Shown in pieces: positions 17,093 to 64,000 of a DNA stretch of 64,000 nucleotides (its first letter is position 1; every line of letters begins with the position of its first letter). Position numbers and translations under genes: made by a program. Below the pieces are notes generated by a model. The model was given only the letters and a program-made list of their open reading frames with translations, had not been told where the DNA came from and did not search any database. This DNA is from an uncultured virus (IMG/VR IMGVR_UViG_3300020057_000040) (Duplodnaviria > Heunggongvirae > Uroviricota > Caudoviricetes). The stretch is from IMG/VR virus record IMGVR_UViG_3300020057_000040; one strand, given 5' to 3'.

Positions 17093-18445
17093 TTAATTGT
17101 ATGCAAAACTTCCAAAGTTAAATATTTTTTCTATGTTTTTTGTTGCGAAAACCTTTTTGCTATTTTCAACTTTTACATAAGCACCTTTGTTTTGTATTCC
17201 AACTGCCTTATGTTTTTCCCCGTCAATCCAAACTAAATCTTTTGGTTGAATACCATATCTCTGTTTTCTAATTGAAGGATAAAAACCATTTCTGTTTAAT
17301 TGAATTGCTCTATTGTTTCTATGTTTCTGAATAATTGTAGTTTGTTTACAACGTTCCTGTGTTGTTCCACCTGCAATTACAAACGCATCGTTGGCGTGAG
17401 TTTTTTCAATGTTATTTTCAATTCGTTTTACCTTTGTAATGTAGCCATAAGTTAAATTAACCTCTCCGAACTGTTCTTGCAATCCATTAATAATGAAATT
17501 TTTTGAGATGTTCATAAATGTTGAACCCTTGTACTCTCTGTTCTTTTTTAGTTTCAGTCCTTTTTTGTGTAGTTTCTTGTGGCAATCTTTGTGTAGTAAT
17601 GCTAAATTAGTTGGATTATTACTTCCTGAGTTACTTCTTTCAATTATATGATGTAAGTGCCAACCGTTTTTGTCAAATCCTTTTTCGCATAATTGACATT
17701 TACCATTTTCTCTTTCAAGAATATACGCTTTCGTGTTTTCATAACCATATAAACTTCCTTGTTGGTAATCCGTTCCACTAATCTCTGAGTTATTCATTTT
17801 CTGAATATCAAAATTTGCAATTTCAAGATTAACTTTACTTACAGGAAGATATTTGCAATAAATTTCAAACAGCCTGACGTGAGCATCAATTCTTCTTTGT
17901 GTTGAAGGTGGCAACCAATTTTCTTTTTTCTTACGATTTAAAAATCTTGGCTTCCTGTACCACAGTTTGTTTCTTCTACCTCTACGGTACATTCTTTTTT
18001 CTGTTAGTCTGTCTTTTGTTTTTGAATCAAGAGTTACTTCTCCTGAAACTAATTCTTTTTTTTCTGTTACAAATGAAAACCCAATGTGCTTGTAACCTTT
18101 GTCCATCCCGCCTGTAATTTCTTGTACTTGATTTTCACATTCAAAATTTAATTGAATTACAAACGGAAATTGTCTTACTACTTTTGCTTTACCTGCTGCT
18201 AATAATTTTCGTGCCTTTGCAGGTTTACAAGGCATTAATTTTTTACCTTCAATTGAAAGTACGAGAACGTTGACGTTAAGTCCGCCTCCTCGTTGGCGTT
18301 GATTCACTTCGGGATTGTTAGAACAGGTTTTTAAACTTGCAACACTAAGACTTTGGTCTTTGTTTAATTGCAAATCACAGTTGCTACGAGCTTGTGAAGC
18401 ACTCGTAGGTGTGTTGGTTTTCCTTCTCTGTTTTAACTTCTGCAT
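17093..18445 (-). CDS. iscB: IscB RNA-guided endonuclease (RuvC + HNH); the true start may be near 18280 because the called N-terminus overlaps the omegaRNA
   Basis: KLMP(PLMP)-KARKLL, RuvC-I GMDKG, bridge helix RMYRRGRR, RuvC-II LEIANFD, HNH CQLC..HHII..HKDCH, RuvC-III HANDA. Confidence 0.93.
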   Translation of the reverse strand: MQKLKQRRKTNTPTSASQARSNCDLQLNKDQSLSVASLKTCSNNPEVNQRQRGGGLNVNVLVLSIEGKKLMPCKPAKARKLLAAGKAKVVRQFPFVIQLNFECENQVQEITGGMDKGYKHIGFSFVTEKKELVSGEVTLDSKTKDRLTEKRMYRRGRRNKLWYRKPRFLNRKKKENWLPPSTQRRIDAHVRLFEIYCKYLPVSKVNLEIANFDIQKMNNSEISGTDYQQGSLYGYENTKAYILERENGKCQLCEKGFDKNGWHLHHIIERSNSGSNNPTNLALLHKDCHKKLHKKGLKLKKNREYKGSTFMNISKNFIINGLQEQFGEVNLTYGYITKVKRIENNIEKTHANDAFVIAGGTTQERCKQTTIIQKHRNNRAIQLNRNGFYPSIRKQRYGIQPKDLVWIDGEKHKAVGIQNKGAYVKVENSKKVFATKNIEKIFNFGSFAYN

Positions 18446-18538
18446 AATTAATTATTACTAATTTTTAAGCTCCCTAATCAACAATTTAACCCGTCCTCAC
18501 GGACAAGCCCCTATCCCTTTAGGGTAGGGGTGATTGAC
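18275..18538 (-). ncRNA. omegaRNA scaffold; guide predicted to be the flank just beyond 18538
   Basis: GTCAATCACCCC start and CACCTACGAGTGCTTCACAAGCTCGTAGCAACTGTG hairpin immediately upstream of iscB. Confidence 0.75.
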
Positions 18539-26534: not shown

Positions 26535-27144
26535 CAACTTTAATAGTTCGGCTCTTTTTGTGTCGTTACTCATATCCACTTAATCTATTTCTTTCAACAA
26601 TATATTTTTTAAAAGCGTTCATAAAAGCAGTTACATCTTCCTCGTAAGATGTGTCAGGGTCGTAGTATTCAAAATAAACCTTTTTTGATATTTTATCTGA
26701 GAAAATTAAATCGTATTTTTCACTCCAATCTAATTCTTTAGATTCAAAAATGTGATATGCCTTTCTATAAAGTTGATGTAAAAAGTCAATGCTGTTTTCA
26801 TCAATAGTATCATTTTCTTTAGCGAAATTGTAACTTGCTACCATAGCATCACGCATATCACCATAGGAAATATGTGAACTATCAGATAACTCAGGATTAT
26901 TTTTATTAATGTAATCTTCTATAAAATCGTTAATTGACATAAAATACCGTATTTGACCACCACGAATGTATTTAAACCATTTAACTTATCAAATAGTAAG
27001 TGATTTAAACTTATTAACAATGGTAATTAACAAATCAAGGCGTTTTACTTTGATAAAAAGTTCAAATAAAGCTGTTTATGTGGTTATTAACCATTATATT
27101 TGTATTTCCTACCTAAACCGTATTGACCGTATGATTTGGTAAGT

Positions 27145-27189
27145 AGCCCCGAATATTATCAACTTAATATTTCGGGGCTTTTCTTTTTT
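27145..27189 (+). terminator. Intrinsic terminator
   Basis: AGCCCCGAATATT...AATATTTCGGGGCT followed by a T-rich tract. Confidence 0.7.
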
Positions 27190-27214
27190 ATTAAAAAATA
27201 ATTATATTTGTATT

Positions 27215-27460
27215 ATGTTTACGTTTCGCATCGTGGTAACACGATAAGTTTTTGAGGACGTTCATTTTGGACGAGGGTTCGATTCCCTCCGATTCCACTC
27301 AGGTAGTACAAAATATTTGGGTTCGATGGGTTTTGACAGATGAAGTAAGTTATGAGAATTAGAGGCGTAAAATAGTCATAACAGGCGAAGATTTAAAGAT
27401 GGCAGCATAATCTTCCCGATAGGGAACATTTATTGCCTCCTACTTCGGTAGGTCGATAAA
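27215..27460 (+). ncRNA. ssrA: Circularly permuted (two-piece) tmRNA; outer boundaries approximate
   Basis: T-arm and 3' acceptor (GACGAGGGTTCGATTCCCTCCGATTCCA, ending 27297) precede the 5' piece GGGTTCGATGGGTTTTGAC (27319). G3:U70 pair present. Tag reading frame GEDLKMAA* at 27384-27410. TATATTTG promoter at about 27203 and terminator at about 27462-27492. Confidence 0.85.
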
Positions 27461-27932
27461 GAACCTCCTTGTGAAAACTTGGAGGTTTTTTATTTTATTT
27501 TTATTATTATATTTGTTCCATATCAAAAAAACTAAAAAATGGATTTAAAAGAATTAAAAGAACAGTTAATATTACAAGCGGATGTAATTAATGATGAGGA
27601 AACAATAAGGATTATATCTAAGGAAGAAAATACTGATGATAACGAAGAATGTATTTGGGTGTCTGATGTATTAGTTTTTTCACGTCCAAATGATAAGTTT
27701 TTAATTCGTAATTTACATAAGGATAACAAGAAGGAACATATCATCACAGATTCAGAAGGTGTAGTATTTTACTTTAAAGGTTGGAATGATGCTTGTGATA
27801 ATTTCCTTTCATCAGTAAATAATGAAGAAGAAAAAAGCGAAATATACATTAAATCATATCTTGAAACAATGGAAAGTTTCTGTAAGAGTGAAAGACAGAA
27901 ATTAGAAAAATTGAATAAGTAAAAATTTAAAC

Positions 27933-29043: not shown

Positions 29044-29458
29044 GTGAACTACCCCTACCTTAAAAGGTAGTGGCTTCGGAAACGAAGCCCAAGTTCACAA
29101 GACTAAGTTCTCAGAAACGGGAGCTACGATTGAAAACTCATAACACCAACGGTTAACGCAATAGACCGTTGCTCTGTTGATTACATTTAAGAAGGGTCAA
29201 GGGATAGGCTTGGTGATGTAGTCGAAAAAAGGTTTTTAATCATTGTCGAATTGAAGTCGGATTTTTGAAATGGTTACAGTTTCAAAATACGCATTACCAA
29301 CCGAAAGGTTGTGTTTGGTCAGAAATGACCGATTTTATTCAAATGGAACTGCAAGGATTAATTTCTTTGCAGTTTCAAATGGATTTTTTAAAAACAAAAT
29401 GAAAGCGTTGAGTTCGCTTACATCCCATAGCCTAAAGGCATAGGGGTTTTACGCTCAA
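29044..29458 (+). mobile_element. ORF-less IS200/605 element consisting of an omegaRNA (HEARO-like) plus right end
   Basis: GTGAACTACCCCTACCTTAAAAGGTAGTGGC start, CACCAACGGTTAACGCAATAGACCGTTGCTCTGTTG hairpin and CATTGTCGAA motif; right end near-identical to those at about 17030-17090 and 62711-62772. Confidence 0.8.
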
Positions 29459-30296
29459 AAAGATAAATAAATAAATAAATAAAATAAAAAAAACAACAGC
29501 TATGAGCAATTTAAAAACACTTTACGAGAAAATTAAAGCGATTCCTTCTTTACCTAAAGACATCGAAACAGAGTTAAATCCACGTAACGGAGATGACGTA
29601 CCTTACATTTATGTTGATGGTTTTTCTGTTGATATTGATGGAGAAGATTTTTATGCTGTATCGGATGAAACTGATGCAGTTGAAGATTTCGCAGGAACAG
29701 AAGACCAAATTGTAGAATTTTTCAAAGGACTTTACGATGCCTACATTCAAGAAGAAATGGATGAATCAAAATCAAACGAATATTATAACAAGGGTTTCAA
29801 TTTAACTCTTGCTACATCAGAAGGTGATGATGATGATAGTGAAGAAGAAGAAGCGTAAATGATTACCGAAATACAAAAAAGATTATTTGACTTCATGGCT
29901 CTGTACTATGGACGTACTAAGTTAGAGAACGAAAATGATTATCAGGTAATGTTAGCGATATACAAGGAGATTTATCCTTATGAGCAAATACCTGAAAATT
30001 GTATCGGTTGTCGTGGCGAACTTCTGAAAAAATTACAATTTCATTACGAAACTTTAGCAGGAAACGGAACGTTCAATTAAAATTAATCGTTCTGATTTTC
30101 AGATACTTATTAAATATTTGTAAAATATATTTGCATATATTAAATTTGTTTGTCTAAATTTGTATCCTATTGAAGTGGGTAAAATTGCTTTTTCGGGTAG
30201 GAAAATCCTGTGAAAGAGAACAAGTCAAAAGAGATAACGAATACAATAGCTTTTTTGAATCCCTGAAATAGAAAACTTAAAAATTAGAAACCGCAA

Positions 30297-30431
30297 ATGT
30301 TACAAGTAAAAAATATTCAAACATCAATTTGGCACACGGCAGCGATAAAAGGCTGTGCAGTCATTTCTACTACCTTTATGAATACGGAGAAGGGGAATGA
30401 TTATGCCGATGTCGGGGTAACTTGTGATTAA
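30297..30431 (+). CDS. Leader peptide of tRNA operon 1 (44 aa)
   Basis: MLQVKNIQTSIWHTAAIKGCAVISTTFMNTEKGNDYADVGVTCD; contains TGTCGGGGT, complementary to the terminator 5' arm. Confidence 0.7.
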   Translation: MLQVKNIQTSIWHTAAIKGCAVISTTFMNTEKGNDYADVGVTCD

Positions 30432-30454: not shown

Positions 30455-30485
30455 AAACCCCGACAGAAATGTTGGGGTTTTTTGT
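30455..30485 (+). terminator. Attenuator terminator ahead of tRNA operon 1
   Basis: AAACCCCGACA-GAAA-TGTTGGGGTTT followed by TTTG. Confidence 0.85.
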
Positions 30486-30651
30486 TTTACAAAAGTTTTA
30501 AAATAGTTCTTTGAAAAAGTATTGAAAAAAAATTGGCTACGGCTTTTAACCAACAAACTTGCGGACGATGGTTACGGAAGCGAGAGTGTGGCAGTAGCCG
30601 ATGAAATTAATTAACGAGTGATGATATAACGGGGAGAAAGTACGACTGTAA

Positions 30652-30756
30652 ATGCAATTTCTTGTCCACTTTGCAACTTCTCAATCATCCCAATAGAGAA
30701 AATATGACACAAAAAAATGCAACTTCTTGTCCACTTTGCAATTTTCTCAAATCACC
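30652..30756 (+). repeat. Two-copy direct repeat of about 38 bp
   Basis: AATGCAA(T/C)TTCTTGTCCACTTTGCAA.TTCTCAA at about 30651 and about 30716. Confidence 0.75.
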
Positions 30757-30773
30757 GTTGATTAAAATATTAT

Positions 30774-30856
30774 GCCTATTTCGCATAGTGGTCGATTGCA
30801 CCTGATTTGTAATCAGGATACGAAAGTACACGGGAGTTCAAATCTCTCAATAGGCT
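30774..30856 (+). tRNA. tRNA-Thr(TGT)
   Basis: Cloverleaf; anticodon arm CCTGA-TTTGTAA-TCAGG. Confidence 0.85.
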
Positions 30857-30870
30857 CAGTAAAATAAAAT

Positions 30871-30943
30871 ATCGTTATAGCTCAGTTGGCAGAGCATCGG
30901 GTTCATATCCCGAATGTCGGAAGTTCGATTCTTTCTAACGATA
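30871..30943 (+). tRNA. tRNA-Met/Ile2(CAT)
   Basis: Anticodon arm TCGGG-TTCATAT-CCCGA. Confidence 0.85.
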
Positions 30944-31401
30944 CAGTAAAAAAATGTTCTTTGAAATATTAAAATATTCGATAGGTGTAAGCGGAACGCA
31001 GAAACCGAATTGAATAGAGCGAGTTACCATGTAAGATTTTAAACAGTTAGCTGTTTATTATTTGTGTCGGTGAGAAAAAGACGGCTGTTAGCCCCACTAA
31101 GGCAATCGCATACAAACGTTGACCCGATGAAAAATAACTTCAATGAAGTTTGGAAGTGTAGAGATTTTGTTATTGGTATTGTTTTGCTTTGGAATAAAAA
31201 TATTTTTGGTTGGAGGTTCGCCTCTCTTTTTGGATGTACAATTCAGGAATTACAAAATCGGAAATAAAGCAAAGTAATACTAATGATTAATGATTGAAAC
31301 GCAAACTGATTTGATGAAACACACTTGGAAATCCTTTCTGTGCTGAAAGGAGAAAACACAAAAGCACACAGATGTTCTCGCTCTTAAAATATTTTTTAAA
31401 T

Positions 31402-31475
31402 ACGCAATTAGCTCAGTTGGTCAGAGTACGATACTGATAATATCGAGGTCGGGTGTTCAAATCACTCATTGCGTA
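31402..31475 (+). tRNA. tRNA-Ile(GAT)
   Basis: Anticodon arm CGATA-CTGATAA-TATCG. Confidence 0.9.
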
Positions 31476-31478
31476 CTT

Positions 31479-31554
31479 TGCGGGGTAGAAAAGTGGAAAT
31501 TCATGGGGTTCATATCCCCACCATGCGAGGGTTCGATTCCCTCTCCCGCTTCCA
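31479..31554 (+). tRNA. tRNA-Met(CAT), initiator-like
   Basis: Anticodon arm TGGGG-TTCATAT-CCCCA, unpaired 1:72 position, encoded CCA. Confidence 0.85.
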
Positions 31555-31557
31555 TTT

Positions 31558-31632
31558 GGACGAGTAGCTCATGGTAGGCAGAGCAGTTGATTGTTAATCA
31601 AAAGGTAGGAGTTTCGACCACTCCCTTGTCCG
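31558..31632 (+). tRNA. tRNA-Asn(GTT)
   Basis: Anticodon arm TTGA-TTGTTAA-TCAA. Confidence 0.8.
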
Positions 31633-31663
31633 CAACAAAAATGTTCTTTGATAAAATAAAAAT

Positions 31664-31737
31664 GGGATATAGGTGTACTTGGGTTGCATACCATACTGTC
31701 TATATGGTGGTGTCGGGTTCAAATCCCGAATATCCCG
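31664..31737 (+). tRNA. tRNA-Asp(GTC)
   Basis: Anticodon arm CCATA-CTGTCTA-TATGG. Confidence 0.85.
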
Positions 31738-31749
31738 CAACAAAAAAAT

Positions 31750-31819
31750 GCACGTCAGGCTATTGGCAGCCAAGCGGATTCCAACCCCGCAGGACAGAGT
31801 TCGATTCTTTGGATGTGTG
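31750..31819 (+). tRNA. tRNA-Trp(CCA)
   Basis: Anticodon arm GCGGA-TTCCAAC-CCCGC; T-arm GTTCGATTC. Confidence 0.75.
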
Positions 31820-32786
31820 CGTAGTAGAGTAGAGGCATTATGGGGCAAAGTCTTATTGTATGTAAATACGATGTAGAAAAATCCCCGCCTTGCTCGGAAA
31901 TTGAATATTAATAAATTAAAAAAAATGTTTTTAACTTGGGAATGAAAATAAAATATGCAGAGTAGGTTTACAAGACCGATGTGATTCGACGGGATGCGAA
32001 TGGAAAAAAGTATTTGGATACTGTTGTTCAAATACCGTGAGGGTAGATAACGAAGTTGCAAAAGCAAAAAATGTTGAAGTAAAAAAAATATCAACTTTAA
32101 AAAGTATAAATAAAAAAACGCTTAAAAAAGATATTCAGGAAAAAGAACACTTCCTGAAAAAAATAACAGAACCATCGAAAGATGATTTTACAAAAAAAAT
32201 AAACATTCCAATTCAAGATGATTGGATTAAAAAAATAAAAACAAATGAAAACGGACTTAAATTTTTTCGTGAATAAAGATGCAGGGCGATTTATCGTTCA
32301 CAGTTATCGTACAGGTCGCAAATATTTTGTCGAGCCTATCGAGAACGAGCATACTCCAATATGGGGTGATGTGAACCCCGCCACAGGAAAAATTGAAGGT
32401 GCGTATGGCATGAAGCATCGTGGTGGTATCAAAGAAAAAGAATCTTTGATTACAAAAGAAAATGGATTTAGTAAAATTCATTATACAGGTGTTGGTAGCT
32501 CACCATTAAGTTACATAACTGATTTGGATGAAAAATATCCATCTCTAAAAAATTAGAAATAATGAAAACGTATAAGGTAAATTTAAAAAATAAAGAAAAT
32601 GAAGTTGTTTTAACACATAATTTGTTTGCATGGAATGATGAAGATGCAAAAGAAAAGTGTGATGTTTTAGTAAATAGTGCAAGAAATAAAAATGTAGTTT
32701 CGGCTACGTTAGCTTAAAAAAAAATAAATAATGAAAACAAAATCAATTAAAATGGAAACAGACGAACCCTTTGAGCGTAGATATAT

Positions 32787-32859
32787 GTTCGGGTCGTCTA
32801 AAGGTTAGGACGTTTGGTTTTCAACCAAAAAATAAGGGTTCGATGTCCCTTTCCGAATA
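32787..32859 (+). tRNA. tRNA-Glu(TTC)
   Basis: Anticodon arm TTTGG-TTTTCAA-CCAAA. Confidence 0.8.
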
Positions 32860-33030
32860 CAGAGTAAAAAATTGTTCTTTGAAAATATTGGTTATTAGTA
32901 AATCAGCTTCCGTGAGTGCTAAGTTTTCGGTAGCAGTAAGAACCGACGAAAGTATTGAAAGATACCTGACGGAATAATTAAGGTAACGGTGGCATATACG
33001 TTAATCTAACTGAAACTAATAACCTTTAAT

Positions 33031-33106
33031 GCGGGAATAGCTCAATTGGTAGAGTATTAGCCTTCCAAGCTAAATGTTGCGAGTTCGAGCCTCGCTTCCC
33101 GCTCCA
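33031..33106 (+). tRNA. tRNA-Gly(TCC)
   Basis: Anticodon arm TTAGC-CTTCCAA-GCTAA; CCA end. Confidence 0.92.
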
Positions 33107-33115
33107 ATAAAATAA

Positions 33116-33186
33116 GTTCCTATGACCGAAGGAATAGGTGCATCTCTGCAAAAGATGATATAGTGGTTTGAATCCACTTAGGAACT
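33116..33186 (+). tRNA. tRNA-Cys(GCA)
   Basis: Anticodon arm CATCT-CTGCAAA-AGATG. Confidence 0.85.
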
Positions 33187-33545
33187 CTGAAATAAAAAAA
33201 GTAAAAATGAAAAATATAAAATCACATAGATTGAAACTTTAAGTCATTGGTGAGCAAAACCAATGGCGATAACTTTCAACGCTATGAAAAACATGAAACG
33301 TGCCGAAAGAAGGTACAAAAAACAAACTAAGTTTTTAAAAAGAATAAAAGTTTGGACTACGGGTATGTATCAATTCAACCCGATAACATTAAATGAATTG
33401 AAAAAAAATATTTTAGAAGGTAAATCACACACCTTCTTAAAAACAACAAGCCGTCCTTGTAATTGTTATTGTTGTACGTATTTAAAATATAATCGTACAC
33501 CGAAACATAAAGTGATGAAGGAGGCATTTAAAGAATAATAAATTC

Positions 33546-33617
33546 GGACGTATAACTCAGGGGTAGAGTAACGCCCTCATAAGGCGGAGGTCGGTGGTTC
33601 AAATCCATCTGTGTCCA
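33546..33617 (+). tRNA. tRNA-Met/Ile2(CAT)
   Basis: Anticodon arm CGCC-CTCATAA-GGCG. Confidence 0.85.
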
Positions 33618-33659
33618 CAGTAAGAAGTAAAATGATAGAAGTATTTTGAATTAAAATTT

Positions 33660-33733
33660 GGGGATGAAGCACAATTTGGCTGTGCAAAGGCTTTGCAAGT
33701 CTGAGGTTGTGAGTTCGAGGCTCATCATCTCCA
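33660..33733 (+). tRNA. tRNA-Ala(TGC)
   Basis: Anticodon arm AGGC-TTTGCAA-GTCT; G3:U70. Confidence 0.85.
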
Positions 33734-33747
33734 CATAAAAAATAAAC

Positions 33748-33820
33748 ATGGGGTTAGCTCAGTTGGTAGAGCGTTTGCATTACAAGCAAAATGTCATTGG
33801 TTCGATTCCGATACTCCATA
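33748..33820 (+). tRNA. tRNA-Val(TAC)
   Basis: Anticodon arm TTTGC-ATTACAA-GCAAA. Confidence 0.88.
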
Positions 33821-33915
33821 CAAAAACTAAAAATTAAAAAAATGATTGCTACAAGATATAAATTTTTAACTGTTACTTTTTCGTCAAAGCGAAAGAGTAA
33901 ACGTTATTAATTATA

Positions 33916-33988
33916 TCCCCTTGTAGCTCATTGGTAGAGCTTCCGACTTTTAATCGGAAGAAAAAAGTTCGATTCTTTTCAGGGGGAC
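33916..33988 (+). tRNA. tRNA-Lys(TTT)
   Basis: Anticodon arm TCCGA-CTTTTAA-TCGGA. Confidence 0.8.
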
Positions 33989-33996
33989 AAAATAAT

Positions 33997-34063
33997 GTCC
34001 CTTTAGCTGTTAGGTTTATTTTTAATGAGAGGGTCATGGGTTCAAATCCCATAAGGGACACCA
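33997..34063 (+). pseudogene. Degenerate, D-arm-less tRNA-like gene (TTT-like loop)
   Basis: Intact acceptor stem GTCCCTT/AAGGGAC plus ACCA and T-arm ATGGG-TTCAAAT-CCCAT; D-arm missing. Confidence 0.65.
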
Positions 34064-34120
34064 AGAATTTTTTAAAATAAATTTTTTACTTCAAATAAAA
34101 TAAATTACATTTGCATCTCA

Positions 34121-34186
34121 ATGTACAGCACACGGGAAATAAACAATACTACATCACTTCGCCTCCGAAGACGAAGGATTATATAA
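34121..34186 (+). CDS. Arg-rich leader peptide of the tRNA-Arg operon (21 aa)
   Basis: MYSTREINNTTSLRLRRRRII; Arg codons CGG, CGC, CGA, AGA, CGA, AGG; promoter TACATTTG at 34106-34113. Confidence 0.75.
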   Translation: MYSTREINNTTSLRLRRRRII

Positions 34187-35013: not shown

Positions 35014-35924
35014 TTTTTTATTATATTTGTATCTGCTAATGTAAAGCCGTCGCTATGGGTGCTGATACCGTTCTACAACGGAGAATAGTCTGTTCGCTGA
35101 TGGTCTTCGATTGACAATAGATATGAGGTGTGTATCAAAAAGTATGTTCGGGCAACACCTTTCGGTGAGCATACATTGTAAGAGAAGATAAGTTAGCAAC
35201 TTTAATTTGCCGTAAATTCGGTTGACCATTTAGGTCGAGAACCCACCAATATAGAGGTGGGTTTTTTTATTTATGTATGATTATTTTTTTACCGATTAAA
35301 TCTTTGTGATTATAAACGGATGTTTTATCAAAATCCTTTATTTCACCTTTTGAATTACACCTTGCGTAAACAGGCATTAATAAATCATTCATTGTAACTC
35401 CGCAGGTTAAAGATATAGGGTAAAATCCCCACTTCTCTTTTATCTCAATAGCGGAAGTTAATTTCACGTTTAATGTTCTTTTGTTGATTTTTTTAGTTTT
35501 CATAATATATGGTTTTTTAATATGGTATAAAGGTAAGTACCATGTGTGCAGCCAATCTGCATAGGTCTGAAACACTCGTAAATAGTGGGTTAAGGGTGGT
35601 GTTGATAACTTAATTACATAAATGTAAGTGGTATCACATATTATGATTACATTTGATTCACTTTTTAAGCCAAAAAAATGATAAAACACAGTCATTAACT
35701 AAAACCCATTTATTATGAAAAAATAAGTAAAAAAACCCCGTTATACTTCGAGAAAAAAGTAAGCCATATTAAGTTAAGATATATTAAGGTGAAATCCTTC
35801 CATTATTGGGGGGATTTTTTTTATGCCTTGATGGTAATATTTTATCAATATGAAAACCATTAAGTTACGATATGTTAATATATTTATTTGAATATGTTAT
35901 ACATTTGTTATACATTTGCTATAC

Positions 35925-51071: not shown

Positions 51072-51911
51072 ATGGATATTACACGGTGGTATAACAGATA
51101 TTGTACTGATTCTAAACTTAAATATCCAAGTTTTAGAACTCAGAAGAATTATCAATGTACTGTTTCGTTATTTCTTCAATACTTTATAAATGAGATTGAC
51201 CCTCAACATATACAAACGCAAAAAATAAAAGAATGGTTAGTTAAATTTGAAACTATTAATACTCGAAACCACAAACTTTGTGCAATAAAATCTTTCTATA
51301 AAATTACAGTTTGTAAACCATTAAAATTAGATAAAATACAATTTTCTAAAAAAGATAAAAAATTACCAATAGTTTTATCTGTTGATGAAATACAAAAAAT
51401 GTTTAATGTTTGTGAAAACAAAAAACACAAAGTTATTTTAGCTTTACTTTATTCGTGTAGTCTTAGGGTTTCAGAATTAATAAATTTAAAATGGCAACAC
51501 ATTGATAGAAGCCGAATGATAATTAATATAATTCAAGCTAAAGGAAACAAAGATAGGCAAGTCGGATTAAATGATAAATTGATTAAGTTGTTAGAGGATT
51601 ATTATAAAGAATATAAACCAAAAGAATATATTTTGAACGGACAGTTTCCTGATAAGCAACTTAAATATTCTGATAGAAGTGTTGGAGAAGTTATCAAACA
51701 ATTAGCTAAAAAATCAGGGATAACTAAAGGTGTTCACACACATTTAATTAGACATTGTTCTGCAACACACATGGTAGAATCGGGTGTTGATATTAATTTA
51801 ATTCAAAAACTTTTAGGTCATGGGTCTGTTAAGACTACTAATATTTATTTACATATTTCGCATAATCACATCTCTAAAATACAATCTCTATTACAAAAAA
51901 TTAGTTTATAG
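51072..51911 (+). CDS. Tyrosine recombinase (IntI/XerD-like) with no obvious IntI-specific insertion
   Basis: KKLPIVLS..EI, LRVSE (R), AKGNKDR (K), HLIRH, LLGH and TNIY catalytic residues; 279 aa. Confidence 0.95.
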   Translation: MDITRWYNRYCTDSKLKYPSFRTQKNYQCTVSLFLQYFINEIDPQHIQTQKIKEWLVKFETINTRNHKLCAIKSFYKITVCKPLKLDKIQFSKKDKKLPIVLSVDEIQKMFNVCENKKHKVILALLYSCSLRVSELINLKWQHIDRSRMIINIIQAKGNKDRQVGLNDKLIKLLEDYYKEYKPKEYILNGQFPDKQLKYSDRSVGEVIKQLAKKSGITKGVHTHLIRHCSATHMVESGVDINLIQKLLGHGSVKTTNIYLHISHNHISKIQSLLQKISL

Positions 51912-51915
51912 AAAT

Positions 51916-53118
51916 ATGAAAAAAATAAAAATAATTGTTGGCTTAAATTTTGGTGATGAAGGAAAAGGATTAACAGTATCGTATCTTTGTAACCAATCTA
52001 AAAACCCTTTAGTAATTCGTTTCTCAGGTGGACAACAAGCAGGTCATACAGTTGTTCACGAAGGAAATCGTCATGTGTTCTCAAATTTCGGTAGCGGTAC
52101 AATGCAAGGTCATCCGACTTATTGGAGTGAGTATTGCACTTTCAGTCCGCTCGGTGTTTTGAATGAACACAACGCCTTGAAAAAAATAAAAGGTTTAGAA
52201 CCTAAATTATTTGTTCATCCTTTATGTCCCGTTACTACACCTTATGACCGTGTGTTTAATTGTCAGTTGGAAAAATCAAATCAACACGGCTCTTGCGGTG
52301 TCGGTGTAGGTTCAACAATCCAAAGGCAAGAAGATTATTATAAACTTTTTGTTCAGGATTTATTTCACGAAAACGTATTAATTCAAAAATTGCAAAATAT
52401 AAAAAATTATTATGCAAAGAAACTTGCTATTTCAAACCCATACATTGATGAAAAAATGGGTGTGAATATGGATGATTTTATTCACATAGTTAATGAAGTG
52501 AAAAAAATTATTACTGTTGATAATGGTAGTGAACTTTTATCACAGAATGGTTACGATTTAATTTTTGAAGGTTCACAAGGAATTTTGCTTGACCAAGATT
52601 TCGGTTTCTTTCCTAATGTAACACGTAGTAATACCACTTCAAAAAATGCTCTTTCGATTATCAATAACGATAAATATTTAAGCATGATAAATAAAAGTGA
52701 TATTGAAATTTATTATATCACTCGTTCTTATCAAACCCGTCACGGTAACGGTTATATGAGTAACGAAAATTTATTCGGTGAATTGAATTTAAAAAATAAC
52801 GAACTCGAAACAAACGTAACAAACGAATGGCAGGGTAATTTCAGAAAATCTGTTTTGGATATAGATTTATTGAAGTACGCTTTTCAATGCGATTCAAATT
52901 TCTCTCATGGTATAACAAAACATTTAGTTGTAACTTGTGTTGACCAAACGGGAGATATTATTCCTGTAACTATTAATAACGGTGATAATAATATTTTATA
53001 TAATATTCATATCGAAGAATTACCAACCCGTTTACCTGTAAATTTTAAAAATGTTTATATCAGTCGTGGAGATACAACCGATAAGATGTCAGTTATTTAT
53101 TTAAATAATCATATATGA
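51916..53118 (+). CDS. Adenylosuccinate synthetase-like protein (start reassigned to ATG 51916)
   Basis: GLNFGDEGKG, RFSGGQQAGHT, FEGSQGILLD and TRHGNG motifs. Confidence 0.88.
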   Translation: MKKIKIIVGLNFGDEGKGLTVSYLCNQSKNPLVIRFSGGQQAGHTVVHEGNRHVFSNFGSGTMQGHPTYWSEYCTFSPLGVLNEHNALKKIKGLEPKLFVHPLCPVTTPYDRVFNCQLEKSNQHGSCGVGVGSTIQRQEDYYKLFVQDLFHENVLIQKLQNIKNYYAKKLAISNPYIDEKMGVNMDDFIHIVNEVKKIITVDNGSELLSQNGYDLIFEGSQGILLDQDFGFFPNVTRSNTTSKNALSIINNDKYLSMINKSDIEIYYITRSYQTRHGNGYMSNENLFGELNLKNNELETNVTNEWQGNFRKSVLDIDLLKYAFQCDSNFSHGITKHLVVTCVDQTGDIIPVTINNGDNNILYNIHIEELPTRLPVNFKNVYISRGDTTDKMSVIYLNNHI

Positions 53119-55238: not shown

Positions 55239-55460
55239 GTTTTATATATTTTTTAAATTATAATTATTTAATTTTAAGTATAATAAAGGTATCTTTTAAA
55301 TCAATGTACACTAAAAGTTTATGTTTGAGTAAACTGACGTGTAATAACAGCAGATTAAACAATGTTAATGATAATTAATTAGACTGATTTTCAATTACTT
55401 AAATATTATTTTTAAAATAAATTTTTTTGTTAGGAATTAATAATTTAGTTTTGTGTCATT

Positions 55461-55532
55461 ATGAAGAATTTGAGTTTACATAGTTTATCGTATCTGTACC
55501 TGTTAAAAGGTTCGGGTGATTCTCTATTGTAA
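55461..55532 (+). CDS. Leu/Ser/Tyr/His-rich leader peptide of tRNA operon 3 (23 aa)
   Basis: MKNLSLHSLSYLYLLKGSGDSLL; promoter TAGTTTTG at 55446-55453. Confidence 0.8.
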   Translation: MKNLSLHSLSYLYLLKGSGDSLL

Positions 55533-55565
55533 ACATTATGATATAAAAATAATTAACTTACACGG

Positions 55566-55600
55566 AAAACCCTGAACCTAAAAAGTTCGGGGTTTTTTGT
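55566..55600 (+). terminator. Attenuator terminator ahead of tRNA operon 3
   Basis: AAAACCCTGAAC-CTAAAAA-GTTCGGGGTTTT followed by TTGTTTT. Confidence 0.85.
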
Positions 55601-55633
55601 TTTGTACTAATTCGTTCTTTAAAAAAAATATAT

Positions 55634-55710
55634 GGTGTTATTAGCTCAGTTGGTTAGAGTGCCTGATTGTGGTTCAGGAGGTCGTGGGGTCGTAGCCCAC
55701 ATAATACCCA
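55634..55710 (+). tRNA. tRNA-His(GTG)
   Basis: Anticodon arm CCTGA-TTGTGGT-TCAGG; G-1 present. Confidence 0.88.
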
Positions 55711-55713
55711 AAA

Positions 55714-55806
55714 GGAGAAGTACCCAAGTTGGTTAAGGGGGCAGTTTGCTAAACTGTTAGGTCGTGTAAAAACGATGCGTGAGTTCGAGCCTCACTTTCT
55801 CCGCCA
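55714..55806 (+). tRNA. tRNA-Ser(GCT)
   Basis: Anticodon arm GCAGT-TTGCTAA-ACTGT; long variable arm; CCA end. Confidence 0.92.
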
Positions 55807-55839
55807 AGAGTAAAAATGTTCTTTGAAAATGAATTTATT

Positions 55840-55922
55840 GGAGGGATGCGACCAACGGTGGTCAACTGCGTTTGAAGCGCAGGGCGGTCTTTACGGACAG
55901 GGTTCGATTCCTAATCTCTCCG
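55840..55922 (+). tRNA. tRNA-Ser(TGA)
   Basis: Anticodon arm CTGCG-TTTGAAG-CGCAG; long variable arm. Confidence 0.85.
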
Positions 55923-55936
55923 CAAAAATTAAATAA

Positions 55937-56020
55937 GGGAGTTTATCCAAGTGGTCAACGGGGACAGACTGTAAATCTGTTGGCTTTATGCCTTCGTAGG
56001 TTCAAATCCTACAACTCCCA
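55937..56020 (+). tRNA. tRNA-Tyr(GTA)
   Basis: Anticodon arm ACAGA-CTGTAAA-TCTGT. Confidence 0.92.
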
Positions 56021-56033
56021 CAAAAATAAATAT

Positions 56034-56120
56034 GCCGATATGGTGAAATTGGACAAAGACACAACAGACTTAAAATCTGTCGCCTTCAATGGCATCCCGA
56101 TTCGAGTTCGGGTATCGGTA
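56034..56120 (+). tRNA. tRNA-Leu(TAA)
   Basis: Anticodon arm ACAGA-CTTAAAA-TCTGT. Confidence 0.88.
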
Positions 56121-56134
56121 CAAAAAATAAATAT

Positions 56135-56220
56135 GCGGGTATGGCGAAACTGGCTGATACGCACCTGTTTTAGAAACAGACGCTTTAAATGGCATAAGGG
56201 TTCGACTCCCTTTACCCGCA
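56135..56220 (+). tRNA. tRNA-Leu(TAG)
   Basis: Anticodon arm CTGT-TTTAGAA-ACAG. Confidence 0.88.
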
Positions 56221-58817
56221 CAAAATAAAAATAGGTAACTATATATCTATTGGGACAAGGTTTAAAATTTTTAAGCCGTTTTTGTAGGAAATAACAAACA
56301 TTTTATTTTTTCACATACTTTTCTTTGTATTCTTGTTTAAGTTCTTCTTCGAGTTCAAACATCTTATCCCACTCAGGTAATTTTCTTAAATCATCACGGC
56401 TTCCATTATCCCATAAAAAATGTTGGTTATACGTAATTAATTTTATATTTGGTTCATATAACTTGAATAATGGGTATCTGTTTTCTGCCTTTGGTAATAC
56501 GTGTGAAAAATTACTAACACTAAATTTATAAATTGGTTCACCGTTAATAAATGATATGTGTTCCTTCATACTCTCCCACATGGATTGCATGAGTTGTAAT
56601 TCTCCTGTCGGTACTCTTTTATAAGTTATAGGACTTTTCTTTAACTGTTTATAAACTTTCTTTGGCTTATCCTTATTTTTTTCTATTAATTTCTTTCTTT
56701 TTTCACCTGCATAATGATAACCGCATAACGGTGGATTTCGTTTTGATAATCGTTTTACTTTATCGTCTGTACACATACTGCATACACCTTCCATTATTAT
56801 CATAACGATAATGTTATTTTAAATTTTACAGTAAATATTTTCTTTAATATCAGTAATTTTTAATTTTTCAATTATTTTCTCCATACTTTCAATACCCGTA
56901 GGTGCAAGTGTGAACCTTTCAACCTCAATTCCTTTATCGTTACAACAAAGTAAAGTCCAAACCATATTATTACCTAATGCAATTAATTTATAACTACTGT
57001 ATCGTTCCGTTTTTAATTCGTGTACCCTATCTTCAAACCAATCGGATACATCTACGGTTATTCTTATTTTCATAAAATATTTTATAATTTTTAATTACTC
57101 CAATTGAATGTAAATGAATCTACTGTATTTAATTTTTTGAATTTATCACCGAATGTTTCTTTAGCATAATTTTCTAACTTATCATATAGTTCATCATATT
57201 TTATTAATGTATCACTAACTGTTTTTACTGATTGCTTAGTATTCCTGTATGATAAACTTGATTGTACCCAACCTTTAAAGTAAGTATCTATGTAATCAAA
57301 GCAGCTATTCCTATTTAAAAAAACACCATGCCAAATAGAAACAACAATATCATCATCCAATATGTAAGCGACAGTATTCCATTCTTTAATGAAAACAATT
57401 TCTAATATTTTTTTTATATCCATTATGATTAAATTTCAGTTTAAGCCTTTTTACCGAATATGACATTACTCTCAAATATATCTTTTTTTAAATGATAACA
57501 CTCATTTTTTATTACCCGAATAATAACATCTGCTAATAAATCGTTTTAGTTTTTAATTAACTTCTTGTTGCAAATGGTGATTCGTTTTTTACCATTCCGA
57601 AATTATAAATCTTATGTTTCTCAGCAATATCTGAAATTTCATCACGGGTCATTGTTTCTAATAATTGATTACGTGCGACACAAACAGTATCAAACAAAAT
57701 TAAGTTCGCCTGACCTTCCGTTAAGTTGTCTATGGTGTATTTCAAATAACGTTCAGGAGTAAATTCTTCATAGTAAATACCTGTAATTATAATTTTTACT
57801 TTCCTTAGTTTATCCTTATCGGTTACTTTACCGAAAAAGTATTTATCAAATTTTTTACCTTGTTCTTTTTGTTCGGATTTTGGCATAATCTTTTGCAATC
57901 TGTTTCGGATGTTAATACATATCTCGTGGCATATAACCAATACATCAATGGTAGTTAATTCATTTCCTTTTTCTTCACCGTCAACAAATAGTAACATCTT
58001 ACGGTCAGGGTGTGGTACATCACAGAAGTCACCTGATATTTCTAATTTAAACGGCTTTAGTGTTTTCATATTTTGACATTAAATCATAAATTCTTTTGCT
58101 AATTTACTACATAATGAAGTGAGTTCTTTTTCGCCTGAAATATTTTCAGTTGTTTTGTCATCAACTCTGCGGTATAATGCGTTTATTATAGCCGTTTTTT
58201 CTTTTTCATTAAAAATAAAATTGAATATAAATTTTCTCATGTTAATTTTTTTTTTAAAACGTTAAACCAATCAGTAAATTTTTTATTTTGTATTTTTTTT
58301 ATGTTTGCAATTAAAATGTTTTGGTCTTACAGATTCCATTATTTTTTTAGTTTATTATTAATAAAAACATATTCAGCGTGTGAAAGTGCTTGATGGTATT
58401 TTTTAACCGACTTAATGAAACCAAAGAAAGCCATTTTGCTAACACCAACATATTCGTTACCATAATCCAAAGGTTCTCTTTCTGTTTTAGGAAATATTTT
58501 TTCCGTGTTAGAATCCATAGAGTTTTTAAGCAACTCGTATTCGGCTGCATTTAAAGCAAAGTGATATTTATTCATAACAGATAATAAGTGTTTAAAACTA
58601 TTACCTGAATCAAACTTCTTTTTGTAAATACCATCTTTAACTCTATTCCTAACAGGAAATATTTTTATTGATTCCATTGCTTCTGTAATTTTATCAACTT
58701 TTTTTTCTACTGCTTCTGCCATCTTACGAAGCAACTCCAAAGTTTCAGGTGAACAATTGGGACTGACTGTTGCAACTGACTTTGAAGTTACCCGTATATG
58801 GCGGTGGTCATCAAACA

Positions 58818-60335
58818 TTAATCTAATTTTTTTATTCGTTCACGTATTTGCTCTAAAGTAGTTTCATTAAAAAATTTACCATCTTCATAAATTACTTTAA
58901 GCATACCTTTAGATTCTTCTTCGTGAGTACATTGAGTTTTTACCTCATAGTTTTCTGTAACCTGAATCAATCCTTTTAAAGATTTTTTAGTTCCGTCATC
59001 AGTTATAGGGTCTTTATAAATATCGTACTCTTTACCATCGGCTTCAAACCACGCTCCTTTAGCAGCGAAACCTAGTGAATCCCTTGTAACATATCTGTAT
59101 GTATAAGAACCAACACCTAAAACAATATTTGTTGAAGCAAATCCTTTAGCAGCTAACCTTTCATAAATTTTAATCTGTCTGTCTAAGGTTATAGAATCAC
59201 CATACAGTACGCCAATGTGAGGGTCAAGAACTTTGTAACCTTGATTATTTATAGTACCACCGAATATATCCCAAAGTAATTCTATAACGCCTTTACAGGC
59301 AGGAATATCCTTATCAGCTATTGGACTGTCTTTCATAAATCTATTATCTAAAGTAAAATACTTTCCATCTTCTACAATAAATTCTTCATGTCCACAAATA
59401 ATATCAATAGGATTACCACTATCAGGACGGATAACTAATTTACCATCACGACCCATAATTTCAGATTTCAAGGCAATCAAATAAACGGTAATTAATTTCC
59501 ACAAATCGAATGTGTCTGCTACGATAGATAAAATACCTTTATCAAATTCTTTTAACCAATCTGCTATCATTTGTTGTTCTCCTACTGTAAATATCTTTGT
59601 GGTAGATACAGAGTGTTCAGAAGCGTTAACTGAATTAATACAAACTTTATCTTCGGGTTCACCGTAGAAATATCTTGCTGCAAGAATTACAATTAATGTA
59701 TCAGAACCCCTGTGGCTTGTTGCATGACCCATGCCACTTGAAATCATATCAAATGGCGACATACCCCTTGCGCTAAAATCATGGCACATATAATCAATGA
59801 GCCAAGCATTTGTAGGGTCTGTTTTCATAACCCAATGTTTCGCATTTCTTCTGTATTGTAAAGCCGTTGTTGCTGATGTAGATGAAACCCAAGCTAAACT
59901 TGAAACAATTGTTTCCAAGTATAATGTTAACCACGCAAAACCACTTTTTGTATTTATAAAAGTCATGTGTGGTACGTTAGGGTTTGTTTCTATTCCTTCG
60001 GGTAAACTTTTTGCTTTAATAGGCAAATAACCGACTTTATGTAATTCTTCAAAATGTGAAGCATTAAAATCCTGCATGAGATATAAACTCATGTCTTTAC
60101 CGAATTTCATTGCTTGTTCTAATGGTAGTTTAAAGAAATTTTCCGTAAACTCATCATGTAGCCATCTCCAAGTCAATTGTTGACCGAATGATAAAATTTT
60201 AGTTATGCCTTTGTTAGCGTGTTTGATGCTTCTTGGTATCCAAGTACCGTATAGAAAATTAGTGTTTGGTGCTAACATTCTTTTGTGTCCTACTTTATAT
60301 CCATCGGAATAGTAGAGTGAGTTTGGTCTAAACAT
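58818..60335 (-). CDS. nadV: Nicotinamide phosphoribosyltransferase
   Basis: SDGYKVGH, HDFSARG, ASEHSV, SIVADTFD, VIRPDSG, LYGDSIT and KDPITDDGTKKSLKG motifs. Confidence 0.92.
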   Translation of the reverse strand: MFRPNSLYYSDGYKVGHKRMLAPNTNFLYGTWIPRSIKHANKGITKILSFGQQLTWRWLHDEFTENFFKLPLEQAMKFGKDMSLYLMQDFNASHFEELHKVGYLPIKAKSLPEGIETNPNVPHMTFINTKSGFAWLTLYLETIVSSLAWVSSTSATTALQYRRNAKHWVMKTDPTNAWLIDYMCHDFSARGMSPFDMISSGMGHATSHRGSDTLIVILAARYFYGEPEDKVCINSVNASEHSVSTTKIFTVGEQQMIADWLKEFDKGILSIVADTFDLWKLITVYLIALKSEIMGRDGKLVIRPDSGNPIDIICGHEEFIVEDGKYFTLDNRFMKDSPIADKDIPACKGVIELLWDIFGGTINNQGYKVLDPHIGVLYGDSITLDRQIKIYERLAAKGFASTNIVLGVGSYTYRYVTRDSLGFAAKGAWFEADGKEYDIYKDPITDDGTKKSLKGLIQVTENYEVKTQCTHEEESKGMLKVIYEDGKFFNETTLEQIRERIKKLD

Positions 60336-60411
60336 ATTATTTATTTTTATTGGTTTTTAATTTTGTTAATTGTTTTATTGATTCATTAATTTATAGCGAA
60401 TTTTACCTCCA

Positions 60412-60861
60412 TTAGTCTTGTTCTTTGTGTAATTTTTTTTGTGTGTATTCAATTGCTTTATCGAAATCAATGAAAAGAGGAATACTAAATCTTTCACACA
60501 TGATGTGTATGTTCTCAGACCTGTAAAATTGTTTAGGACAACAAACTATCAACTTACCTGACTTGTAGTGCATACCAAATTCCAATAACGTAATTGGTGA
60601 TTTACTATCGGGTAATATGTTCATAAAAATATATTTTGATTTTTCCATTGCATCTATTTCCCAATTAACTTGTTCATCAGAATTAACGTTATCAAAATTT
60701 GTACGACGTGGATTGTAAATATCATAATCTAATCCGCTTAATTTGTAAATGGCTATTTGCTGCCAATCAACACTTTTTCCCATTTCAATTGTACCTGCTA
60801 AGAAGATACCTTTTCTTTCTGTATTCAGAATGTAGTCGGGGGCTGTAAATACTTTTCTCAT
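60412..60861 (-). CDS. Nucleoside 2-deoxyribosyltransferase-like domain protein
   Basis: IFLAGTI...WQ, YNPRR, QVNWE and SPITLLEFG motifs. Confidence 0.85.
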   Translation of the reverse strand: MRKVFTAPDYILNTERKGIFLAGTIEMGKSVDWQQIAIYKLSGLDYDIYNPRRTNFDNVNSDEQVNWEIDAMEKSKYIFMNILPDSKSPITLLEFGMHYKSGKLIVCCPKQFYRSENIHIMCERFSIPLFIDFDKAIEYTQKKLHKEQD

Positions 60862-62771: not shown

Positions 62772-64000
62772 TTAGTTTAAATTTAATTTTTGTGTATCAA
62801 TAATCCAACTTTTTCTTGCACTAACTCGTTTCATTTTTTCAAACTTAGGAATTGGTTTTAGTTCAACTTTTTTGTTATCAATGTTCATTAGTATGGCGTA
62901 TCCTGTTGCCATTCTACCTTTGATAAAATATATTTTTCCTTCGTATTCAACCTTGTCAAATTTTCTGAATCCTTTGATTTTTCCAACAGGAATAATTTGT
63001 TCAGAGCGCACTCCTTTTCTTAATTGAAAATCTCCATCTGAAATACACCTCTTTAAAATAATTTCATTTGTTTTAAAAGTAACAGGATTTCCATTGCTAC
63101 CAATTGCAACAGCATCAAAATAATGTTCTTTTGGCAAACCAATTAATTGTCGGTGTTCTTTTGTAATGTATCCAAAAGTTTCTTCTGCATTTGAAAGTCG
63201 TTTTAATAATTGAACACGAATTGAGTTCATTTGTGTAGCATGATTTAATTGACCTTTCTTTTTACCTTTTAATTTAAGAATAATTTTTCCTGAGTGTAAA
63301 TCTTCATGGCAAGTATCGTGCAAGGTTATTAGATTTTTTTCATCATCAGAACCACCTTCACTTTTAAAAATAATATGATGAACTTCTAATTTTTTGTTTT
63401 CTGTTTTCTTTTTACAATGTTGACAAATATAATTATCACGGTGCAAAACATAGGATTTTGTATTTGCGAAACCATAGTTAATTCCTTTTTGATATAACGA
63501 ATTATTTTTTAAAACATCAGGGTTTTTTAGTGCGTGTGTGTCAAAAGTTGCTGTTTCAATTTTTAATTTTGTAATAGGTAAAATTGATTTTACAAATTTA
63601 ATTTCCTTTAAATGAGAATTAATTTTACTTGTCATTGTTGGTGAAAATCTGTCAGTTCTGATACTGTTTTTTCTATTGTCGAATCTTGGTTTTCTGTATC
63701 TTGTATTTTTGTTTCTGCGAAACCTTCGATACTTTGAACGCTGTGTCATTTTTTCTGAAACATCATTTCTGATTGTAATTTCAGAAACATAAACAACTTC
63801 ATTTTTTTCATTCAAAACTGCACTTCCAACAACCGAACTTCCTGAATCAATATCATGTTCTAAATCTTGTTTGTAGTCGGTTGTTTCATAATTTAATTGA
63901 ATTGTAAAAGGCGTAGTCATTACTACTTTCGCCTTGTTTTGTTTAAGCAAAATTCTTCCAATTGCCGAACAGCATGGCATCAGAGGATTTTTTTCTTTGC
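62772..64000 (-). CDS. iscB: Second IscB nuclease; 5' end runs off the window; element right end at about 62711-62772
   Basis: NPLMPC at the window edge, IDSGS, RSKYRRFRR, IETATFD, HNH CQHC..VHHII..HDTCH and HYFDA motifs. Confidence 0.92.
   Translation of the reverse strand, partial: KEKNPLMPCCSAIGRILLKQNKAKVVMTTPFTIQLNYETTDYKQDLEHDIDSGSSVVGSAVLNEKNEVVYVSEITIRNDVSEKMTQRSKYRRFRRNKNTRYRKPRFDNRKNSIRTDRFSPTMTSKINSHLKEIKFVKSILPITKLKIETATFDTHALKNPDVLKNNSLYQKGINYGFANTKSYVLHRDNYICQHCKKKTENKKLEVHHIIFKSEGGSDDEKNLITLHDTCHEDLHSGKIILKLKGKKKGQLNHATQMNSIRVQLLKRLSNAEETFGYITKEHRQLIGLPKEHYFDAVAIGSNGNPVTFKTNEIILKRCISDGDFQLRKGVRSEQIIPVGKIKGFRKFDKVEYEGKIYFIKGRMATGYAILMNIDNKKVELKPIPKFEKMKRVSARKSWIIDTQKLNLN

Follow-up and report, generated by a model that had tools for sequence, protein, structure and literature searches.

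Phage tRNA operons follow leader peptides that match their tRNAs and probably open only when these tRNAs are scarce

We found that the tRNA operons of an uncultured phage follow short leader open reading frames (ORFs) rich in the amino acids that the operon's own tRNAs carry, and that this layout recurs across viral contigs. Because the leader is built from codons that those tRNAs read, the tRNA genes are probably switched on only when the same tRNAs run short. We are confident that each module is an attenuator of the trp/his type that senses the charged tRNAs encoded by the module itself, closing a negative-feedback loop. What we computed directly comprises the parts, their alternative folds, the match in composition, the covariation, and how widely the design occurs. 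This is apparently an undescribed, widespread use of a classic attenuation mechanism. The first-pass annotation of this DNA knew of no such description for phage tRNA arrays, and we likewise found none of leader-peptide attenuation of tRNA genes in the literature searched, which covered few subscription journals.

The window (the whole stretch of 64,000 nucleotides that was analyzed; G+C content, 30.7%) appears to come from a large phage that infects Bacteroidota, the host group being suggested by the promoter box. Its PHROG matches are to ParB, a DNA polymerase exonuclease, an integrase, NAMPT, and phage-only families. The nearest relative, found by way of a neighboring gene, is an IMG/VR record (L143; 66% identity). 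NAMPT- and nucleoside deoxyribosyltransferase-like genes at 58818-60861, near the operon described next, may form an NAD salvage module. An adenylosuccinate synthetase-like gene at 51820-53118 (PurA or PurZ) matches phrog_1211, whose label is 2-aminooxy adenylosuccinate synthetase. The window also holds two HEARO RNAs (18298-18538, - strand; 29044-29261, + strand) and two RRXRR-HNH ORFs (17093-18445 and 62772-63980); no RRXRR-HNH ORF of at least 100 aa lies behind the HEARO at 29044.

The operon at 55409-56221 is made up of the following parts.

55409-55427, + strand: AT-rich upstream promoter element of 19 nt, with an identical copy before the Arg leader at 34069-34087
55446-55453, + strand: Bacteroidota sigma-A -7 box TAnnTTTG (motif match), 7 nt before the L1 ORF
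55461-55532, + strand: leader ORF L1, 23 aa, with codons 4-15 as the putative sensing zone
55487-55501, + strand: segment 1 core (anti-antiterminator), under codons 9-14, from the MFE fold
55508-55520, + strand: segment 2 (antiterminator strand), codons 16-20
55562-55600, + strand: intrinsic terminator, segments 3:4, with its core stem at 55570-55592 and the T tract next to it
55614-55622, second copy 55818-55826, + strand: boxA-like motif GYTCTTTRA
55635-55709, + strand: tRNA-His(GTG), ARAGORN default; encoded G at 55634
55714-55806, + strand: tRNA-Ser(GCT), ARAGORN default
55840-55923, + strand: tRNA-Ser(TGA), divergent, with a weak T-stem; ARAGORN at relaxed threshold only
55937-56021, + strand: tRNA-Tyr(GTA), ARAGORN default
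56034-56121, + strand: tRNA-Leu(TAA), ARAGORN default
56135-56221, + strand: tRNA-Leu(TAG), ARAGORN default

The first-pass annotation had named a promoter, a boxA, and six tRNAs, and its observation was confirmed. A TAnnTTTG box does precede the leader, and the promoter is plausible rather than proven because the octamer occurs 119 times across the AT-rich window. This box spans -12 to -5 in Bacteroidota (PMC9723704). We place the transcription start at ~55458, ~3 nt before the leader ATG, and L1 would therefore be nearly leaderless. The 19-nt element has two exact matches in the window; since 8 of 100 shuffles gave at least two matches at no more than two mismatches, its support is modest. 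Six of the nine window matches to GYTCTTTRA fall within tRNA clusters, and we take the motif to be boxA. Five of the six tRNAs were called at the default setting; the sixth, tRNA-Ser(TGA), scores below the Rfam gathering score. The L1 segment had 0 exact matches in viral contigs, and blastn of the L1 operon against cultured phages gave matches confined to the tRNAs.

L1 has the skewed composition first noticed by eye: 16 of its 23 residues are Leu, Ser, Tyr, or His (16 of 22 without Met), and codons 4-15 are an uninterrupted run of 12 cognate codons. These four amino acids account for 20.8% of the 8951 codons in 31 window ORFs, which gives P = 2.5e-7 for 16 or more in 22. Among the 410 short ATG ORFs of the window, L1 alone reaches 70% or more. 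The weight of the L1 evidence sits in this amino-acid-level match. The finer claim, that the leader codons are the ones these tRNAs should read, is weak by itself, since the operon's tRNAs serve both codon boxes of Leu and both of Ser. The lack of CTT and CTC among the 8 Leu codons of L1 is unremarkable, as they make up 19% of this phage's Leu codons.

We found by folding that the L1 unit contains the mutually exclusive 1:2, 2:3, and 3:4 pairings of an attenuator; the comparison of own with swapped terminator arms across the surveyed clusters, given below, bears on the same pairings. An intrinsic terminator behind the leader had been proposed, as had pairing of AGGTTCGGG (55508-55516) with its 5' arm, and both were confirmed; the stretch pairs with 55571-55579 through 8 Watson-Crick pairs and one G-U pair. 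The complete leader RNA folded into 1:2 plus the 3:4 terminator (-40.4 kcal/mol; z, -4.5). Taken separately, the 1:2 hairpin had an energy of -19.4 kcal/mol in an RNA ending at the stop codon, the 2:3 pairing -17.8 kcal/mol (z, -3.3) in an RNA cut before segment 4 (55500-55585), and the 3:4 terminator -21 kcal/mol (z, -4.7). In a related unit (L156), the terminator arm and segment 2 are altered jointly relative to L1.

We then modeled a ribosome by keeping all bases between -15 and +12 nt of the A site unpaired. With the A site anywhere on codons 2-13, the probability of 2:3 was 0.98 to 1.00; it was 0.00 for codons 14-23 and 0.29 for the stop codon, so that the modeled switch point is the end of the L1 cognate run. 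In this model, the regulatory codons are positioned such that a stalled ribosome leaves segment 2 free. At the ribosome-free equilibrium the model favors 2:3 (probability, 0.73), and default termination therefore rests on 1:2, which would form ahead of segment 3 synthesis.

Two further tRNA modules in the window also follow leaders.

30297-30431, + strand: leader L2, 44 aa, with the antiterminator strand at ~30410-30417
30455-30480, + strand: terminator of the L2 unit, with a 2:3 alternative of -21.5 kcal/mol
30774-33988, + strand: second tRNA operon, 14 tRNAs (ARAGORN, Rfam)
34106-34186, + strand: -7 box and Arg-rich leader L3 (L3 ORF, 34121-34186)
34254-34535, + strand: three tRNA-Arg genes (TCT, ACG, and CCT), ARAGORN default

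The second operon encodes, in order, Thr, Met, Ile, Met, Asn, Asp, Trp, Glu, Gly, Cys, Met, Ala, Val, and Lys tRNAs. We found that 35 of 43 L2 residues belong to this set (T, M, I, N, D, W, E, G, C, A, V, and K; P = 0.011 against a 64% phage background), compared with 5 of 43 for the L/S/Y/H set and 0 of 43 for Arg. Likewise, L1 has 16 of 22 residues in its own set and 6 of 22 and 0 of 22 in the other two. L3 has 6 Arg among 20 residues and ends in LRLRRRRII (P = 5e-5), and all 6 Arg codons of the three window leaders sit in it. The intrinsic terminator caller found none behind L3, and our guess is that it is a Rho-dependent variant. In another phage (L188 of G001), an Arg-rich ORF ends 7 nt before tRNA-Arg(TCT), again with no terminator. 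The Arg leader of G001 fails to align with L3 and is therefore an analogue by position, its orthology unproven. Together, the two suggest a variant without a terminator for Arg tRNAs. The window has no Pro, Phe, or Gln tRNAs; the nearest relative carries them in a separate unit with a P/F/Q-rich leader. Its His/Ser/Tyr/Leu unit has a leader counterpart of L1, with the start and the sensing zone common to both.

Several other elements lie around these modules. By eye, a TTG-started ORF of ~33 codons (30168-30269), possibly a second upstream ORF, sits between a -7 box at 30155 and L2. The second operon contains long, G+C-richer noncoding spacers (30520-30770, 30980-31400, and 32880-33030) with no Rfam match; one carries a direct repeat near 30650-30750, and G001 has related spacers. 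A degenerate tRNA-like element lies between tRNA-Lys and the Arg leader promoter (33997-34060; Rfam, 36.5 bits; no ARAGORN call). After the Arg tRNAs comes a noncoding promoter-to-terminator stretch of ~230 nt (35034-35265; -64 kcal/mol; z, -1.95; no Rfam match). A permuted two-piece tmRNA lies at 27206-27501 (Rfam RF04321, 48.8 bits; tag, GEDLKMAA), and G001 has a counterpart in the equivalent position. Just before the window tmRNA, at 27103-27180, a promoter box is followed by a noncoding RNA of ~75 nt and a terminator, and a similar unit lies upstream of the L188 tmRNA.

The first-pass annotation had proposed a survey of leader composition against tRNA sets, which we ran on viral contigs with search patterns that leave the leader out: a tRNA-His 5' end, or a terminator tail plus boxA. 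One pattern gave at least 120 matches, 80 of them with full flanks. The leader was defined as the longest ATG ORF of 18 to 50 aa whose stop lies 12 to 60 nt before the terminator. In the first set, among the matches listed, we found a leader in 60 of 73 units (25 clusters), with a match of 0.481 versus 0.310 permuted (z, 7.9). After this set and before the pooled test, the terminator caller was made stricter, the earlier version having miscalled some tRNA acceptor stems. Pooling gave 118 units from 188 sequences, with 81 distinct leaders in 40 clusters (35% single linkage), again among the matches listed. Among these listed matches, 111 of the 118 terminator-plus-tRNA units had a leader; the rule fires by chance on 15.5% of 11,400 shuffled upstream regions.

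We found that leader composition follows the downstream tRNA set. Across the 40 clusters the match was 0.520 versus 0.346 permuted (z, 11.3), and 0 of 20,000 permutations were as high. The 17 clusters outside the first set gave 0.592 versus 0.420 (z, 7.3). The signal was confined to the coding frame: over the same 40 clusters, the values were 0.315 (frame +1), 0.319 (frame +2), and 0.325 (reverse) against ~0.34. All 20 amino acids were commoner when their own tRNA is in the operon. Among the clear cases, Gln-only operons follow Gln runs, a Lys-only operon follows a Lys run, and ten Tyr and Leu tRNAs follow a Tyr/Leu leader. At the level of codon boxes, matching gave P values of 0.01 for Arg, 0.13 for Leu, and 0.64 for Ser.

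Over the 40 clusters, leaders paired with their own terminator arm at -11.1 kcal/mol, versus -7.8 kcal/mol for swapped arms, and segment 2 starts 6 to 45 nt before the ORF end in 37. Cognate codons made up 415 of 620 before segment 2 versus 105 of 283 after it. In 31 disjoint pairs of related leaders, 70 of 173 single-change codons differ synonymously, versus 24% expected. This synonymous excess and the frame-specific signal bear indirectly on whether the leaders are translated. Only 6 of 14 indels between related leaders were multiples of 3 in a frame-blind alignment, which is not a clear preservation of frame. Taken together, composition, cognate codons upstream of segment 2, and arm covariation give the attenuation reading good comparative support.

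Some units fit poorly. In the first set, low matches came from the first unit of L019 (0.08), L046 (0.26), L041 (0.22), L112 (0.10), and L118 (0.10); most of the poorly matching units of that set are incomplete or miscalled. The leader rule also missed some tRNA clusters of G001, G003, and G004. In G001, genes lie between the terminator and the first tRNA, and the leader was identified by eye. Two surveyed loci (L047 and L036) carry tRNAs with stop-reading anticodons (TTA and CTA) inside leader-controlled operons. In another (L193 of G004), a terminator-gated tRNA operon holds a gene between the terminator at ~2510 and tRNA-Ile at 3173; we take its product to resemble ribosomal protein L7/L12. 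Of 44 representatives, 14 have a TAnnTTTG box within 90 nt and 9 a sigma-70-like pair; for this reason, the hosts may extend beyond Bacteroidota.

A metagenome scan added 110 loci with 95 units and 67 leaders. The six clusters found only there, several of them incomplete, gave 0.283 versus 0.216 (P = 0.10), and all 44 clusters with the metagenome included gave 0.475 versus 0.312. Of the 28 leaderless metagenome units, 24 start with Thr and the remaining 4 lie within 112 nt of the locus end. The 24 are mostly near-copies with a Thr-Tyr-Gly-Thr cluster wherever the sequence is long enough. This cluster carries an EF-Tu-like gene in 3 of 3 checked, a label that we presume from the GHVDHGKT motif. 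It is thus a host operon, Thr-Tyr-Gly-Thr-tuf, and serves as a specificity control without a leader.

Cultured phages have the design as well. We found three units with matching leaders in each of the Cellulophaga phages phi38:1 and Calle_1 and two in Maribacter phage Panino. Cellulophaga phage phi4:1 has one unit by the leader rule and two by eye, one of them GTG started. The phi38:1 transcriptome paper, in its available text, discusses only host tRNA genes (PMC5335546). The tRNA regions examined in Lak-B5 (22 tRNA calls), Paride (12), and Thrax1 (21) contained no unit, and leader-terminator units are therefore not universal in phage tRNA arrays.

In bacteria, a GTDB scan with a narrow pattern gave 9 matches in 185,579 genomes, and in 4 of these matches the terminator is followed by a run of tRNAs; given so narrow a pattern, the scan does not establish absence from bacteria. 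Three of the four are small metagenome-assembled genome (MAG) contigs of 0.6 to 3.3 kb, which may be misbinned phage. The fourth is a 93-kb contig of a Lindowbacteria MAG with a 20-tRNA array (L137:1461-4027) whose leader-terminator layout is like that of the phage units, so some bacterial arrays may use the same design. Among 401 genomes of one phylum, mostly 0.6 to 3 Mb and possibly unrepresentative of the host group, 38 had matches, about as many as in the reversed control, and 0 of 30 loci examined from this search held a unit.

We propose that the L1 switch would work as follows. Host RNA polymerase would start ~3 nt before the L1 ATG. With an ample supply of charged Leu, Ser, Tyr, and His tRNAs, the ribosome would pass codons 4-15 and cover segment 2, the 3:4 terminator would form, and the operon would be off. 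When any cognate tRNA is scarce, the ribosome would stall in codons 4-13 and cover segment 1, leaving segment 2 free to form the 2:3 antiterminator, and the six tRNAs would be transcribed. New tRNA would relieve the stall and close the negative-feedback loop. Phages would split their tRNA genes among several modules, each with a leader made from its own codons. Leader translation, regulation in vivo, and feedback are here inferred from the arrangement of the parts.

The trp, his, thr, pheA, and pheST leaders are ribosome-mediated transcription attenuators. The phage units resemble the trp/his attenuators in every structural feature examined: a short ORF with regulatory codons, 1:2/2:3/3:4 pairing, and an intrinsic terminator; the predicted signal, charged tRNA, is also shared. 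They differ in lying in phage genomes and in that they would control genes for tRNAs, not for synthetases or enzymes of biosynthesis; in addition, one leader covers as many as 17 amino acids and is rewritten to match its operon, and the product would be the sensed molecule. Rfam leader families stayed below gathering in the window (Thr_leader, 33.1 bits versus 55, on the terminator only; trpB motif, 20.3 versus 59), and the Rfam T-box had no match in the window at the gathering score or in 55300-56300 at E up to 5. T-box riboswitches, which may control a few tRNA genes in Firmicutes, also couple the charging state of tRNA to antitermination; unlike the phage units, they bind the tRNA directly and involve no translation.

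Leader-peptide attenuation has been noted in Flavobacterium (PMC9723704), and leaderless poly-Cys short ORFs of mycobacteria govern translation of cysteine-metabolism genes (bioRxiv 10.1101/834739). The latter share with the phage units, as proposed here, a leaderless short ORF, codons that sense supply, and module-by-module downstream expression, whereas the phage units would act on transcription termination of tRNA genes. Among the nearest known systems is the Anabaena trn operon, which is controlled by promoter direct repeats and a putative repressor and belongs to a general stress response (PMC8421152). Like it and the bacterial L-arrays, the phage operon would keep a reserve of tRNA genes off as long as translation is unimpaired; in contrast, its control would be in cis and codon specific, and its promoter is of the TAnnTTTG type. 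Evasion of anticodon nucleases has been hypothesized for phage tRNAs (PMC10264068), and the tRNA-Tyr of T5 and SP15, overexpressed from a strong promoter, counters retron-Eco7 (PMC11555353); in both that case and ours, phage tRNAs would substitute for lost host tRNAs. The terms "attenuat-" and "leader" are absent from the available text of PMC8421152, PMC10264068, PMC11555353, PMC13191261, and PMC7824862. As far as their available parts go, PMC4833913 treats leaders of protein genes only, and PMC13462974 treats tRNA-cleaving defenses and has no bearing on regulation.

We weighed other explanations of the layout. That L1 is a chance ORF before an ordinary constitutive terminator, the tRNAs coming from leak-through or another promoter, seems to us very improbable. 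The DNA is AT rich, as are Leu, Ser, and Tyr codons, and the window holds 119 -7 boxes. Against this stand the local P value of 2.5e-7, the excess of leaders among the matches listed (111 of 118 versus a base rate of 15.5%), the frame-specific composition signal, the arm covariation, and the fact that no same-strand gene ends at the terminator (55562-55600). It is unlikely, though less so, that the units are general translation-stress attenuators that any stall (antibiotic, ribosome damage, or collisions) would open, with codon identity minor. In our model any stall on codons 2-13 leads to antitermination, leaders of large operons cover 13 to 17 amino acids, and upstream ORFs that sense ribosome-targeting antibiotics are known (PMC12121999, PMC9226507). 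Such a switch leaves unexplained the module-specific leaders (Gln runs before Gln-only, Lys before Lys-only, and Tyr/Leu) and the enrichment of 20 of 20 amino acids. General stress may be a genuine second input.

A further alternative competes with the trigger and not with the attenuation mechanism: the switch would be the same, its natural signal would be amino acid starvation or bulk decay of host tRNA, and the modules would be a timer or a starvation response. By the logic of trp/his control, uncharged and missing tRNAs look alike to an attenuator, and no window feature ties the modules to a defense system. We regard this trigger as a real possibility, at somewhat under an even chance. Extra tRNA would help little if the amino acid itself is absent, whereas it directly repairs tRNA loss; moreover, phage tRNA-Tyr rescues from retron-Eco7 cleavage in a manner dependent on promoter strength (PMC11555353). 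The trigger suggested in the first-pass annotation, host anticodon-nuclease defense, is one to which we give about an even chance in a broader form. In that form, codon-specific feedback modules would serve many phages, chiefly of Bacteroidota, as an on-demand counterdefense against tRNA-cleaving immunity, each leader reporting the lost host tRNAs, so that its own module alone is transcribed, and being rewritten when tRNA genes change module. If this is true, the leaders would be a readable record of the tRNA sets attacked together in these hosts.

Attenuation by leader peptides would thus extend from protein operons to tRNA genes, with the sensed molecule as the product. The presence of tRNA genes in phages has long called for an explanation, with codon compensation set against replacement of host tRNA that has been destroyed. 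If an operon opens only on a shortage of the tRNAs that it encodes, this favors replacement on demand. The design is testable now because cultured phage-host pairs have it (phi38:1 and phi4:1 on Cellulophaga baltica). The leaders themselves would report tRNA loss during infection, and they would supply natural tRNA sensors that are programmable by codon.
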